A stretch of 18,237 nt of DNA from Candidatus Aenigmatarchaeota archaeon (GTDB lineage: Archaea > EX4484-52). The notes under the pieces were generated by a model, which ran no database searches, had not been told where the DNA came from, and saw only the letters and a program-made list of their open reading frames with translations. The stretch is taken from positions 1 through 18,237 of the forward strand of contig JAGLPV010000029.1 of assembly GCA_023137195.1 (NCBI GenBank), read 5' to 3'. The stretch's first letter is position 1, and every line of letters starts with the position of its first letter. This document shows, piece after piece, positions 2,941 through 18,237 of this stretch. Position numbers and translations under genes: made by a program.

Positions 2941-4719
2941 ATGGCAAGAAGAAAAGTCAGGTTCCATGACGTGATACGTGTCGTTGACAAAAAGACATCT
3001 GGTTTTGGCGGAGGAGAAGGAGGTACAAACAACCGCATTATTTCAAACCTTGAGGAGACCGAAGAGCAAAAGCTTCAGGCAAGGGAAAATAAAGAAAAAA
3101 AGGAAAAAATATTATTGTCTACAAAAAACACAGCTGTGGAAAATCTTCTTGATGCTCATGCGTTTTTATCTACGGATGAGATGAAAAAATATAATAAACA
3201 AATCAAGAGTGCTAGCTCTGTGGGAGAAATCAACCAGGTAAAAAAGCAAATGCTGGAAGAGAAAATAAAATTCATGGACCTTGGGAAAAAGATGGAAGGT
3301 GTCAGGGGAAAGCTAAATGAAAAGAAATCAGAACTGCACGAGGACTACTCAAATGATGTTAATCGTATAATGAATAATGTCAATACAGATATTTATAGCA
3401 GTATTTTCTATTTTGAATTTCTTTCGAATCAAAGATATCCTTTGAAAGATCCGAGGGATGAAATAACGCCGATTTTATTTCCCAGGGAGTATATATTTAG
3501 CTTAGCATTAACATATCAGGAATATTTAAAAGAGGGTAAAGTTAAAGAAGAACTAAAAAAAGCATTTGAAAATAATAATATATTATTAAACGAAGCGATT
3601 ATTTCAAAAATAAATAAAGATTGGATAATTGGAGATGGATATAAAAAATATTTGATAAAAGAAGTAGCGGAACGGAGGCTAGATATCTACTCCGGCACCA
3701 GGGAAATGACTGTTCAGGATGTATTGACTTTTGATGGGGTTGTCAAGGCAAATCGATCCTATCAATATTTTTGTGAACTAAAAAACGAGGGTGCTTCTTC
3801 CGGATGGATAGAGGCAAAAATAATAAAATCCTATGATGGAGGAACTGGAGAGAAAGGAGAAATGATGATTCATATCAGAGGAGAACAGCCAGGAGAAAAT
3901 CATGTGAAGAATGCAATAGATATTATTACTCCTGCAGAACTTCATGAATATGGTTATGTTTATCTTGATAAAATTACCCGCCACAAGAAGCATTTTACTC
4001 TAAAGAATTCGCAAAACAAAAAAATGGAGTTTACCGACAGCCAGGGAAATAAAAAAGAAATGAGTGTACACGAAGCTCGCAACAGCAAGGACAGGCGGTT
4101 GAGAGAACAGGGAGAAATGGCATACCAGACTCTTGAAAATGAAAGCAGGGATGAGTTGCACTCTGTTCGTGAAGCCACAAACAAGATGCAGGATACGAGG
4201 AGAGATTACTATAATCAATATCATGATGCTGCAAACAAGGTATTGAAAAAGGAGTTCAGTTCAGATAAACTCCAAAAAAGCAAGGAACATCTTAAAAAGC
4301 ATGGAATAACTAACACAGAGCAATTTGATCCTTCTAACAAAGAGATTAATAAATACAGCAAGAAATATAAAAAGGAAGCTTTGATTGGAGAGATTATTGA
4401 AGAAGCCAACTGGTTTATTGTGAATTATGAAACACTATATGAGCATCTGGCGGATGTGGAATATGGTACTGTTGATAAGGCAAAAAAAAGAGCCGGTGCT
4501 GCTGTAACTAGTGGGAAAAAAATGATGGGAGCTGCCGAAGAAAAAACAAAGAAGACGTTTTCTTCATTCAAGTCCAGAATTAAAAGAAAACCCACAGGAT
4601 CCAGTGAAATAGTAGTGGACGGAACAGAGAGTGAAGAAGGATGGGATGACGTGACTGATACGACAGAAGGACCAGATGGTGTGTTTGTACCTAATAAAAA
4701 GGAAGAAGAAGAAGATTAA
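2941..4719 (+). CDS. Hypothetical 592-aa charged, probably coiled-coil-rich protein with acidic C-terminal tail
   Basis: Long uninterrupted ORF starting 2 nt after the tyrS stop. K/E-rich helical stretches, ends KKEEEED. No catalytic motif recognised. Confidence 0.85.
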   Translation: MARRKVRFHDVIRVVDKKTSGFGGGEGGTNNRIISNLEETEEQKLQARENKEKKEKILLSTKNTAVENLLDAHAFLSTDEMKKYNKQIKSASSVGEINQVKKQMLEEKIKFMDLGKKMEGVRGKLNEKKSELHEDYSNDVNRIMNNVNTDIYSSIFYFEFLSNQRYPLKDPRDEITPILFPREYIFSLALTYQEYLKEGKVKEELKKAFENNNILLNEAIISKINKDWIIGDGYKKYLIKEVAERRLDIYSGTREMTVQDVLTFDGVVKANRSYQYFCELKNEGASSGWIEAKIIKSYDGGTGEKGEMMIHIRGEQPGENHVKNAIDIITPAELHEYGYVYLDKITRHKKHFTLKNSQNKKMEFTDSQGNKKEMSVHEARNSKDRRLREQGEMAYQTLENESRDELHSVREATNKMQDTRRDYYNQYHDAANKVLKKEFSSDKLQKSKEHLKKHGITNTEQFDPSNKEINKYSKKYKKEALIGEIIEEANWFIVNYETLYEHLADVEYGTVDKAKKRAGAAVTSGKKMMGAAEEKTKKTFSSFKSRIKRKPTGSSEIVVDGTESEEGWDDVTDTTEGPDGVFVPNKKEEEED

Positions 4720-9657: not shown

Positions 9658-10221
9658 TTATTTTTTAATCCTAAACATATTCTTGAAGTAAGCCCAATGC
9701 CATACTATATGGAATATTGAAATTGCAAACATCGCTATTCCTGCTTCTACATGCCAGAACAGGATATTAAACGGCAAAGAAATAGATATGCTAAAATTGA
9801 TTTCTATCACCCGTAAAACGCCCAGTATCCCGGAAATCAAAAAAGTGATAAGAAGTAAAAAATTCCAGATTTTCCTGTGGTCTGCAATGCTTATTATTTT
9901 TTTCTTTGAGAGTATGTGACTAATTAGGTATAAAAAAATCAAAAACAAAGAAATTGGCAAAAGATGGTAAATTCTTTTAGCCTGCTGGGTTTTTAGTTCA
10001 TTCTCGATTAGTGAATTAACTTCCTCTCCCGTACTTGTTGTATTGTTATCTCTGTCTTCCGGTGCTGGTTGTGAACGGTCGCATATCCCATCGTTGTCTG
10101 TATCAATGAACAATCCGCATTTTCCTTCGCATAAGACCTCACCTTGCGGACAATCGTCCCATGCTAAAACTATTGTAGGGAGTAAAACAAATAATATCAA
10201 CGAGAAGATTATTTTTTTCAT
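9658..10221 (-). CDS. Membrane protein with signal peptide, Cys-rich/DxDxDG N-terminal module and DUF4405-like His-containing TM region
   Basis: Signal-like MKKIIFSLILFVLL..., DCP...C.GKC..F.DTDNDGICD, three hydrophobic helices with WHVEAG and FHIVWHW. ATG at 10221 has TATATAAA about 21 nt upstream. Confidence 0.75.
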   Translation of the reverse strand: MKKIIFSLILFVLLPTIVLAWDDCPQGEVLCEGKCGLFIDTDNDGICDRSQPAPEDRDNNTTSTGEEVNSLIENELKTQQAKRIYHLLPISLFLIFLYLISHILSKKKIISIADHRKIWNFLLLITFLISGILGVLRVIEINFSISISLPFNILFWHVEAGIAMFAISIFHIVWHWAYFKNMFRIKK

Positions 10222-10286
10222 GTAAAACAATAATTATTAAATTTATATATTTGTTCTATGCAGGCGGACAGTTGAGAAAAGTACAA

Positions 10287-16367: not shown

Positions 16368-16670
16368 ATGAAGATACCAAAAACAGTCAAAAGATTTTGT
16401 CCTTTTTGCAAAACAAATCACGAATGTAAAGTCAATCGTGTGAAAACCGGGGGGCGAAGAAAAACAAGTTCCTTGAAAGCTGGGAGTAGGTACAGGCTGA
16501 AGAAATTACATAAAGGTTATGGAGGATCTCCTTATCCCAAAATAGAACATGGTCTGACTTATGGTGCAAAAAAATCCCAGAAGGTGCTTATTAAATTTAC
16601 ATGTAGTGCTTGTTCTAAAAGCCACCAGTCTAATATTGGAAGGGCAAAGAAATTTGAGATTCTTAAATAA
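16368..16670 (+). CDS. rpl44e: 50S ribosomal protein eL42 (L44e)
   Basis: MKIPK....FCPFCK..H, GYGG.P.P, K..K......C..C.K.H zinc-ribbon pattern. Confidence 0.94.
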   Translation: MKIPKTVKRFCPFCKTNHECKVNRVKTGGRRKTSSLKAGSRYRLKKLHKGYGGSPYPKIEHGLTYGAKKSQKVLIKFTCSACSKSHQSNIGRAKKFEILK

Positions 16671-16700
16671 TCCACAGGAACGCACGAGAACCCACAAGAA
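16671..16700. repeat. Three imperfect 10-bp tandem repeats
   Basis: TCCACAGGAA / CGCACGAGAA / CCCACAAGAA immediately after the rpl44e stop. Confidence 0.55.
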
Positions 16701-16738
16701 AGTATTTTAATCTATAGTTAAACATGATTGAAACTTTT

Positions 16739-16761: not shown

Positions 16762-16855
16762 CTTTACTGTTTTGGATATACGAAGTTTTTCTGTAGCGTA
16801 TCGGAAGAAAAATTTGGGTGAAGCCGAGGGCTGAACCGCATATCTCTTGTTAAAT
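16762..16855 (+). mobile_element. attC-like integron cassette recombination site (left R'' box degenerate)
   Basis: GATATACG (16775-82) and CGCATATC (16837-44) form an inverted pair, followed after 4 nt by GTTAAAT (16849-55, matches GTTRRRY). Internal hairpins AAGTTTTTCT/AGAAAAATTT and AGCC-gag-GGCT. The expected ...TAAC reads CTTTACT. Confidence 0.6.
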
Positions 16856-16938
16856 CCAATTATTACTCGGAACCAGCATGAAAGAAACACAGAAATGTTA
16901 AACACTAAGTAGGGGATTTTCTTCTAAAATAGCACAAG

Positions 16939-16946
16939 TTTATATA
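16939..16946 (+). promoter_or_regulatory. Putative TATA box of the cassette ORF
   Basis: TTTATATA about 22 nt upstream of ATG 16969, consistent with a leaderless archaeal transcript. Confidence 0.55.
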
Positions 16947-16968
16947 TTCTCAACTACTCAATAACATT

Positions 16969-17937
16969 ATGAATTGGACTACAAGAGGTAATGGCACATG
17001 GGAAAAAGTTGATGAGACATCATTTAAACAATTAGACATAGAGAAAGAGATTAATGGTGAAAAGAAAGCAGTATTTCATCAATACACAGAGATTAACTTT
17101 TCCAACTATAAATTTAGCTGTAATGTTAAATTTCTTGAAATAGGTAAACAACCTAATGGTCAGCAATGGGGAGAGGCAAAATTAATTTTTACAGATGCTG
17201 ATAACTCTGAAAAATTCAGATTAGATTTTATGGATGTATCACCCATTAAAACCTGTTGTCTAACTTATTTTGGATTTCAACAGAATTTCCCCCTAGAAGT
17301 CACTAAAGAAGGTGGCATTAATATTGAATTTTTTCTACGATCAGTCATAAGTTCTGCTGGTGGAAGGAAGATACTTATATCATTAATTGTTGATGGAAAT
17401 GATGTATTTACTAATTTTGAGATTAAAAAAGAATTTAATAAGCATATTGGTATCGGAACGTATCTTGCTAAAGTGCAATTCAACAATATAAAAATTGAGA
17501 AACTACCATCTAAGAAGTGCTTTGTAGTAATGCCTTTTAATTCTAGACGTGACTATATGTATGAAAATGCAATTGTAAAAGCTTTAGAAGAGAAGGATTC
17601 ATTCACATTTGAGAAACCGTACAGGTTAGACAAGAGTTTAAAATCGGGTTCTATTCCAAAAGAATTACAAGAGAAAATCAATGTTGCTGACCTTATTATA
17701 GCTGATATAAGTGAAAAAAATTTGAATGTTTTTTATGAAATTGGTTACTCCTACGCATTAGAAAAAATTACTTTATTATTGAGAGAAGATGGATCTAACT
17801 TTAATATACCCTTTGATATCGTTGGTGACCGCTATGTAAAATACAAACTCCCTATGAAGCAAGAAGACTTAGACCAAGAGATGAAGATTCTTAAAGATAA
17901 GATAAATAATTTCATAAAAACCAATGTTCTAGAATAA
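16969..17937 (+). CDS. Two-domain protein: N-terminal beta-sandwich (concanavalin A-like/DUF1080-like) plus C-terminal nucleoside 2-deoxyribosyltransferase-like domain
   Basis: C-terminal CFVVMPF...I..AD.IIADIS..N.NVFYEIGY..AL.K...IPFDI is the NDT-like pattern. N-terminal W...G.W, F.NY.FS..VK, IGIGT....VQF.NIKI suggests a lectin/glucanase fold (weaker). Sampled lines are about 25-27% GC. Confidence 0.75.
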   Translation: MNWTTRGNGTWEKVDETSFKQLDIEKEINGEKKAVFHQYTEINFSNYKFSCNVKFLEIGKQPNGQQWGEAKLIFTDADNSEKFRLDFMDVSPIKTCCLTYFGFQQNFPLEVTKEGGINIEFFLRSVISSAGGRKILISLIVDGNDVFTNFEIKKEFNKHIGIGTYLAKVQFNNIKIEKLPSKKCFVVMPFNSRRDYMYENAIVKALEEKDSFTFEKPYRLDKSLKSGSIPKELQEKINVADLIIADISEKNLNVFYEIGYSYALEKITLLLREDGSNFNIPFDIVGDRYVKYKLPMKQEDLDQEMKILKDKINNFIKTNVLE

Positions 17938-18001
17938 ATCAGGAAAATCCCCTTTCTCTACAAAACTGTAAGTCTTAGACTGCTGTGTAATGTTGGTTCC
18001 T

Positions 18002-18175
18002 GCGTCATAACTCTTCGTCGCTAACGCTCCTTGTCCTCCCACTCGTCCCTTCGGTCACTCGTAGGTCGGAGGTTAACAGCGATTATCCATTACACTCCGA
18101 CCGCCCACTACGTAGTTGATCTCCGTTCCACCCAATCTGCTCCGCAGGACTTCGGATAATCACGATGTTATACGC
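18002..18175 (+). mobile_element. Compound attC-like element (best-formed site 18071-18173)
   Basis: TAACAGCGATTATCC (18074-88) ... GGATAATCACGATGTTA (18154-70): perfect GATTATCC/GGATAATC boxes and TAAC/GTTA ends. Internal palindrome ACTACGTAGT and hairpin CTGC-tcc-GCAG. About 53% GC over 18001-18180 by hand count. Confidence 0.7.
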
Positions 18176-18199
18176 CCCTACGACTGAAAGGAGGAGAGC

Positions 18200-18237
18200 A
18201 TGGCTGAGTTCAGAAAATATTTTTCGTTCTTATTCAT
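18200..18237 (+). CDS. 5' fragment of a probable next cassette ORF (MAEFRKYFSFLF..., truncated by the window edge)
   Basis: AAGGAGG (18188-94) 5 nt before ATG 18200, about 30 nt after the attC-like GTT. The frame is open to the window end. Confidence 0.5.
   Translation, partial: MAEFRKYFSFLF

Follow-up and report, generated by a model that had tools for sequence, protein, structure and literature searches.

Inverted arms bracketing a cassette gene in an integron-like family of CPR bacteria and DPANN archaea

The window analyzed here is the complete 18,237-nt contig C22 (JAGLPV010000029.1) of Candidatus Aenigmatarchaeota archaeon, whose genome assembly contains 57 contigs, is 1.42 Mb in size and is 85% complete. 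On the 3′ side of the L44e gene, which ends at position 16670, one open reading frame (ORF) of 322 residues (16969–17937, plus strand) is enclosed by a fold-back of nested inverted repeats. The feature is real and statistically solid. The repeats are the gene-specific closing stem of the folded recombination site of an integron-like cassette, and they do not constitute a separate transposon. Such arms are general, with most cassettes bearing them, in a little-known cassette family that occurs in ultra-small organisms, both in bacteria of the Candidate Phyla Radiation (CPR) and in archaea of the DPANN group (Diapherotrites, Parvarchaeota, Aenigmarchaeota, Nanoarchaeota and Nanohaloarchaeota), and that classical integron criteria miss.

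A sequence-only reading of the window had reported four strictly nested repeat pairs, and all four are present: 16869–16879 with 17990–18000 (10 of 11 positions, the mismatch being G-T), 16887–16892 with 17983–17988, 16905–16909 with 17974–17978, and 16911–16921 with 17943–17953 (perfect over 11 nt). The left arm (arm′) of the fold-back spans 16860–16921 and the right arm 17943–18010, both given on the plus strand. The co-folding of 16845–16930 with 17935–18015, which that reading had proposed as a check, gave −21.2 kcal/mol as DNA duplex, compared to −9.7 ± 2.1 kcal/mol for dinucleotide-shuffled controls; as RNA duplex, the values are −43.8 and −21.3 ± 4.1 kcal/mol. In both cases, none of the 500 shuffles reached the observed value. 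Gapped alignment chained 16860–16926 with 17930–18010, giving 52 identities in 91 columns, a score reached by none of 2000 shuffles. As a control free of post-hoc choice, every ORF of the genome with 150 residues or more (1007 in total) was put through the same co-folding geometry (mean −9.1, standard deviation 2.6); the cassette ORF ranks second, and the first rank is due to an unrelated repeat family. The stem also exceeds ordinary R′′/R′ end complementarity, as had been held. The outermost pair proposed earlier, GTTA at 16849 and TAAC at 18008, exists; it lies outside the stem, however, and belongs to the recombination sites. The resident site has GTTA as its crossover core, and TAAC lies inside a conserved module that is part of the site belonging to the cassette itself. 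This module, which is also found in contig C45 of the same genome, includes the outer ∼12 nt of the right arm (17999–18010), and the folds pair 16860–16863 with 18007–18010 rather than GTTA with TAAC.

The boundaries of the cassette, here called cassette X, were defined by comparing filled with uninterrupted copies of the site. On its left stands a resident attC-like hairpin, A (16763–16859, plus strand), which is arranged as R′′-L′′-two inner hairpins-L′-R′ with a degenerate 5′ box. Hairpin A is the last site of a minus-strand array running leftward, abutting L44e; it scores 69.2 bits (E = 5e-14) with the covariance model R1 described below and E = 4.8e-24 with nhmmer, and it can be aligned to more than 100 copies in CPR and DPANN metagenome-assembled genomes (MAGs). 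The left junction reads TGTTA (16848–16852, plus strand), with the crossover G|TT between 16849 and 16850, and the identical five nucleotides stand at the second junction, 18166–18170. The stretch 16770–16852 (∼85 nt) recurs in relatives; in G036:C160 and G031:C44 it continues directly into the sequence found at 18166–18237 of the window, so that the two flanks are contiguous in these uninterrupted copies, as they are in the family consensus. Because the contiguous halves are separated by 1318 nt in the window, with TGTTA at both junctions, 16850–18167 (plus strand) is an insertion at G|TT, which is the hallmark of an integron-type cassette. One further likeness of the left junction, to G002:C6, falls in coding sequence and was set aside as chance.

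Cassette X contains, in order, one 10-nt leader, the left arm, a promoter-like region, the ORF, the right arm, a GC-rich module (B1, 18011–18066, minus strand) and its own attC-like site (B2, 18067–18172, minus strand). B1 was assigned by eye as a diverged reverse copy of M2, the second module of the family. B2 scores 32.7 bits with R1 (E = 1.8e-5), compared to 9.3 bits at the same position on the plus strand and 12.5 bits for the next best match in the window. Since R1 matches A on the plus strand and B2 on the minus strand, cassette X carries a site copy of its own at its end, in inverted orientation to the resident one. The earlier view that the ORF is a cassette between attC-type sites is supported.

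To the right of cassette X, 18168–18237 (plus strand) contains the resident M2 module and the 3′ end of the resident cassette ORF, which is encoded on the minus strand; the contig ends within this cassette, and the resident element's own ORF lies past the contig end. This stretch is 94% identical to G031:C44 and G036:C160, and the same sequence follows the site in loci L109, L058 and L116. Between CPR and DPANN, the resident cassette at the contig end (18168–18237; L109:1240–1290, L058, L116, L147 and G036:C160) is ∼90% identical, and several assemblies break within it, as expected of a multi-copy mobile sequence. In contigs of run X5, which come from another study, a diverged cassette X departs from the window after 18170, fitting a cassette boundary there; at 90% likeness, these contigs cover the ORF variant and the right arm, and not the left arm. 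In all four runs, both halves of the site are covered several-fold more deeply than the ORF, which is what a many-copy element should show. A joint in run X1, from 16798 to 18205 with 10 other letters in between, is best explained by a further copy of the element and not by an empty site of this locus.

Searching a genome collection with the element-core pattern identified at least 121 loci, and 123 matches were inspected by eye. Among the matches listed, the hosts are Patescibacteria/CPR, Woesearchaeota, Pacearchaeota, Nanoarchaeota, Aenigmarchaeota and Nanohaloarchaeota, together with a few other MAGs. More than 110 of the 123 matches listed share a common element of ∼105 nt, which by eye is >90% identical across both domains; it ends in YAAC and GTTRRRY boxes, and the GC-rich M2 usually comes next. 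The model R1 was built from an alignment of 63 diverse copies, which folds into one outer R stem, one L stem and two inner hairpins; 20 of the 29 predicted pairs show compensatory changes. The aligned copies carry the R′′(RYYYAAC)-L′′...L′-R′(GTTRRRY) palindrome of integron sites, the cassette boundary falls at G|TT of the R′ box, and the cassettes form arrays of single ORFs in one orientation (two or more sites in 32 loci; L060 was inspected throughout). The spacers of the site are asymmetric, being 4 and 2 nt in the consensus and 3 and 5 nt in B2. In related loci, the ORF adjacent to M2 is found on the opposite strand in 51 of 54 cases, as is the ORF of the far side in 45 of 56. Read in gene orientation, the canonical cassette thus consists of a 10-nt leader, arm′, ORF, arm, M2 (reversed), hairpin and crossover, and this is exactly the layout of cassette X.

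Hairpin 2 of the element (16815–16837 in the window) has a conserved CGAGCCGAG-type loop on freely covarying stems, with symmetric TGAA/TGAA internal-loop motifs flanking it; it resembles a protein-binding module. Elsewhere in the genome, diverged solo copies of the element stand flush with gene ends (C39:16889–17052, C37:24214–24335, C56:37139–37294, C1:864–999, C5:4440–4508, C2:75020–75083 and C45:33670–33757). In the C39 copy the box overlaps the stop codon, and the C37 element begins with the base that directly follows the stop codon there. Given these flush positions, the site alone seems to spread as an 'empty' unit.

Like the sites, the arms are a feature of the family. The first sign of this came from the Patescibacteria array L060, in which every ORF is bracketed by its own inverted repeat. 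We then took all 33 intervals between consecutive sites in the related loci examined and compared, as DNA duplexes, the cognate arm pairings with cross-cassette ones. Cognate arms average −21.3 kcal/mol, whereas mismatched arms average −11.0 ± 3.0 kcal/mol, and in 19 of the 33 intervals the cognate pair is stronger than 63 or all 64 of the mismatched pairings. The arms keep a fixed position relative to the crossover: of the 20 best intervals, 13 have an arm whose end lies exactly 11 nt ahead of the C in the YAAC box, and three others have it at 7–8 nt. The left arm of the window starts at 16860, 11 nt after the crossover nucleotide G16849, which is the family spacing. Many unrelated cassettes share one short arm design of 14–23 nt, often perfect, with an A/T-rich part on the site side and a G/C-rich clamp outward. 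We also considered the arms as a split intrinsic terminator; this was rejected, because by eye the A- or T-run beside the G/C clamp has either polarity across cassettes.

In the integrated array, the stem would loop out the ORF, as the sequence-only reading had it. In the circular cassette, however, the loop would be the ∼170-nt recombination site and not the ORF. We modeled the circular junction by joining 17938–18167 to 16850–16925 and folding the product as single-stranded DNA. In the bottom strand, the arms are predicted to pair over 11, 5, 6 and 17 bp, and the predicted energy is −37.5 kcal/mol, compared to −17.0 kcal/mol without the arms. The modeled arms close a multi-branch structure that holds the M2-like and attC-like hairpins. 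In single-stranded DNA, the stem would bring the cassette ends together, in line with the earlier proposal.

Taken together, we consider it probable, with real room for doubt, that the ORF resides on an integron-type cassette of the CPR/DPANN family and that the arms are a cassette-specific closing helix, which was copied and has since been decaying. Each cassette ends in a composite element, made of the GC-rich module followed by the ∼100-nt attC-like three-way hairpin with its R and L boxes. Cassette X would have recombined, inverted, at G|TT into the hairpin of the resident cassette after L44e. Its 5′ arm, 11 nt past the crossover, could then pair in single-stranded DNA with the 3′ arm, which stands just before the composite element. 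In the excised circle, the arm helix would close the composite site into a multi-branched structure with the ∼170-nt recombination element as its loop; in the integrated array, the same helix would loop out the ORF and set the two flanking crossover sites side by side at one helix end, an arrangement that should favor folding and excision. The arms would be created or renewed by templated copying, with the palindromic site as the place of template switching or fold-back synthesis, and would decay over time into interrupted nested blocks like those of the window. Of this reading, the data establish where the cassette begins and ends, that its sites belong to the family, how general the arms are, their constant spacing and their origin by copying, as seen in cassette L091 below; folding as single strands, any effect on recombination and the identity of the recombinase are inferred.

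Several observations weigh against this interpretation. Cassette X was inserted through the 'wrong' box of the resident site and in inverted orientation, and its insertion is therefore no textbook event. Module B1 is the weakest-supported part of the cassette, since nhmmer gives no match to it and its assignment was made by eye. In 14 of the 33 intervals, the arms pair no better than mismatched ones, and a solo site after a core gene of this genome has no arms (−10.5 kcal/mol). No compensatory changes were found in two homologous cassette pairs; one pair shows a single pair-breaking change and the arms of the other are invariant. G-T and A-C mismatches, compared for a bias that would reveal the folding strand, show none (21 versus 27, swamped by 124 transversion columns). 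The window contains no recombinase gene, and the R1 scan of the loci around both XerA-like genes of the genome (C1:5140–8928 and C45:29663–33466) detected no site. Neither the circle junction (18167 to 16850) nor an empty site was seen in four runs, of which contigs alone were available, so that this result says little.

Some of these points would fit arms that have no function. It is possible, if on balance unlikely, that the arms are scars of templated synthesis at the palindromic site, perhaps dating from the birth of the cassette, which then decay. The scars could form by fold-back priming after a crossover break or by intra-strand template switching as the DNA replicates. Palindromes can be extended by fold-back priming and by quasipalindrome template switching; such events would give perfect inverted copies from the foot of a hairpin, of variable length and without regard to coding content. 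The intervals without arms and the lack of compensatory changes agree with scars, as does the range of arms from perfect to interrupted, and so does cassette L091. The two arms of L091 agree at 64 of 65 positions, with 47 nt falling within the 3′ end of the coding sequence. The encoded protein is PP2C-like and has 227 homologues; in nine of nine aligned homologues, a conserved 12-residue tail follows KYKSTK, whereas in the L091 protein 10 unrelated, arm-encoded residues replace this native C-terminus. Because near-perfect arms have overwritten the native C-terminus, the arms were made by copying, that is, in a templated event. The interrupted nested arms of L109 and of the window are read as older. 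A tblastn search of the related loci examined found no second copy of the L091 gene. The same gene (L091:1602–2384, on a Woesearchaeota MAG contig) also carries a 4-residue DGAT duplication in its catalytic N-terminal motif region relative to nine homologues.

However, functionless scars account poorly for the fixed 11-nt spacing and for the recurrence of the short A/T-rich design with its G/C clamp in many unrelated cassettes. In L025 and L116, which are 78% identical overall, the arm cores are fully conserved. Moreover, simple hairpin fold-back priming would copy the GC-rich module as well; no such duplication is seen, and different from what template switching would produce, the module stays single-copy inside the loop. 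To our knowledge, template switching at cassette sites has not been described.

L091 also gives some support to the earlier suggestion that the repeats are a trace of how cassettes are made. In this more specific form, which we regard as rather unlikely, the arms would be a readable scar of cassette birth or re-capture, left by fold-back or template-switch synthesis. Cutting of the folded site, or stalling of replication at it, would be followed by self-primed or template-switch synthesis that copies one side inverted onto the other. If true, this would explain the fixed start base, the varied arm length and the overwritten coding sequence of L091 together; every cassette would record how its gene joined the site, and cassette origin could be tested by comparing cassette genes with their non-cassette relatives.

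Pairing at the RNA level, in which a cassette transcript would pair its 5′ end with its 3′ end and so be stabilized, insulated or terminated, is improbable. The RNA duplex is strong, none of its shuffles having reached −43.8 kcal/mol, and the sense strand has G-T at the sole mismatch of the outer block. However, an A/T-rich, TATA-like stretch (16937–16950, plus strand) lies ∼25 nt upstream of the ATG; as read from the sequence, it is a probable archaeal promoter for a leaderless mRNA. With this promoter of its own, the cassette would leave the left arm, which is located upstream of both the TATA-like stretch and the ATG, untranscribed, and this argues against an RNA-level role. In addition, it is the DNA crossover that sets where the arms lie, bacteria and archaea share the design, and the wobble-type mismatches lack strand bias. 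Rfam (with gathering and E-value thresholds) and ARAGORN detected nothing in or near the region. An archaeal bulge-helix-bulge intron or an rRNA-type processing stem does not fit either, given that no tRNA or Rfam family surrounds the stem and that the left arm precedes the promoter-like stretch; a split tRNA or intron-interrupted RNA gene was dropped when the conserved flank was recognized as an attC-like element present in many copies.

The sequence-only reading had also offered a distinct non-autonomous element inserted between attC sites. Like miniature inverted-repeat transposable elements (MITEs) and mobile insertion cassettes, cassette X has a single, non-transposase passenger ORF bracketed by inverted repeats. 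Different from them, it shows no further arm copies in this genome or in 40 relatives, no target duplication or other direct repeat flanking the arms, and no matching transposase. The arms abut conserved site modules at the family-wide distance from the crossover, and those of other cassettes differ in sequence. An independent transposon that landed between two attC sites is thus very improbable, and the suggestion is not supported. Least probable of all is a chance match in A/T-rich intergenic DNA added to ordinary R′′/R′ complementarity: although perfect 11-mers are not rare in DNA of 33% G+C (an estimated ∼0.5 per 1.2 kb) and the arms are not among the 25 longest repeats of a repeat scan, the shuffles, the genome-wide rank and the 19 related intervals all reject it.

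We also looked for the enzyme that may act on these sites. No classical integron integrase was found in the genome at its present completeness. The genome encodes two tyrosine recombinases. Both pass the XerA model NF040815 (257.7 and 224.7 bits; cut-off 220) and fall under the cut-off of TIGR02249 (215.9 and 187.2 bits; cut-off 265), with model positions 180–237 unmatched. Homologues of these recombinases (37–46% identity) occur within 2.5 kb of the element in five of the ∼118 loci listed (L051, L076, L086, L089 and L111); in all five, the recombinase gene is located upstream of the cassette ORFs and divergent from them, which is the integron layout. The recombinase is probably a XerA-like enzyme and not classical IntI. 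The two XerA-type paralogues, C1:6574–7434 and C45:31121–31969, are 37% identical to each other, and the C1 enzyme is 46% identical to the one beside a cassette array in a Saccharibacteria MAG (L086). This likeness suggests that one of the paralogues acts on the cassettes and not in chromosome resolution.

Among known systems, the family shares its plan with classical integron cassettes, such as those of class 1 and the Vibrio cholerae repeats found in sedentary chromosomal integrons. Like these, it has one ORF followed by an imperfect palindrome with RYYYAAC/GTTRRRY-type boxes, crossover at G|TT, arrays in one orientation, a divergent recombinase gene, and sites that are highly alike within a lineage. 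Different from classical attC, the family site is a three-way hairpin with conserved loops that has a GC-rich module in addition and shows >90% conservation between the two domains, and arms particular to each cassette lengthen the pairing so that it spans the ORF, at the fixed 11-nt offset; the neighboring recombinases are XerA-like and lack the IntI-specific insert. We know of no attC site with cassette-spanning arms. The pdif modules of Acinetobacter plasmids are genes moved by the XerC/XerD recombinases and bracketed by short duplex sites in inverse orientation. Similarly, cassette X is bracketed by the inverted sites A and B2, and XerA-like genes are located near some arrays of the family. 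However, the pdif sites are short duplexes, whereas those of the family are folded elements of ∼100 nt; the arrays of the family are normally direct, and its arms are not recombinase sites.

Integron-type cassettes are understood to need only the folded attC site. The CPR/DPANN family adds a second structural layer to this, namely a helix that is particular to each cassette and stands at a constant distance from the crossover. If functional, the helix would be a built-in device for synapsis or site presentation; if it is a scar, it would preserve a trace of the copying by which cassettes are built or repaired. Both readings touch on the simultaneous folding and encounter of two sites and on the origin of new cassettes. 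The arms also serve as a sequence signature by which such cassettes can be recognized in genomes that escape classical integron finders and IntI models.

Among the titles and abstracts consulted on archaeal integrons, attC sites in DPANN and Patescibacteria, CPR integron-like systems and cassette-flanking repeats, none describes the element or the stems. The sections consulted of Ghaly et al. (2022; PMC9668308) report archaeal attC clusters, including some in Nanoarchaeota/DPANN, that mostly lack an integrase in MAGs, and state that some archaeal attCs are 95–100% identical to bacterial ones. The family described here resembles these archaeal integrons and clusters of attC sites lacking integron-integrases (CALINs) in being mostly integrase-less clusters in DPANN MAGs; by the same sections, however, the archaeal systems were defined with canonical attC models and with IntI carrying the extra domain, and the main text, so far as consulted, mentions neither the element nor cassette-spanning repeats (PMC9668308).

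The protein encoded by cassette X consists of an N-terminal part that belongs to no family and a C-terminal domain that resembles TIR and nucleoside 2-deoxyribosyltransferase domains. Residues 223–302 match a PADLOC TIR effector (E = 2.4e-6), and PF05014 is matched under its cut-off (E = 2.3e-4). Because of this C-terminal domain, the ORF is probably a defense-type accessory gene. Among 5.8 billion proteins searched, it has seven homologues only, and scans of metagenome contigs for its relatives, with a protein query and with a 3-sequence alignment, gave no confirmed locus.

The remaining genes of the window are archaeal housekeeping genes, among them L3, L4, the L18e-L13-S9-L44e row, HMG-CoA reductase, proCAB and pdxST. 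The genomes of the relatives range from 0.5 to 1.6 Mb. In the sister genome G002 a different gene follows L44e and no site is present there; in G003, no site lies in the ∼130 nt between L44e and the contig end. Two sizeable ORFs without a Pfam family stand amid the housekeeping genes, at 2941–4719 (592 residues) and 9658–10230 (190 residues). Directly past the L44e stop codon, 16672–16702 is a member of a different dispersed repeat family with CACGGAA/CACAGGAA-like units, which has copies on C21, C33, C37, C42 and C55. At C21:3104–4537, inverted copies of these units form the only ORF-flank duplex of the genome that exceeds the one studied here.
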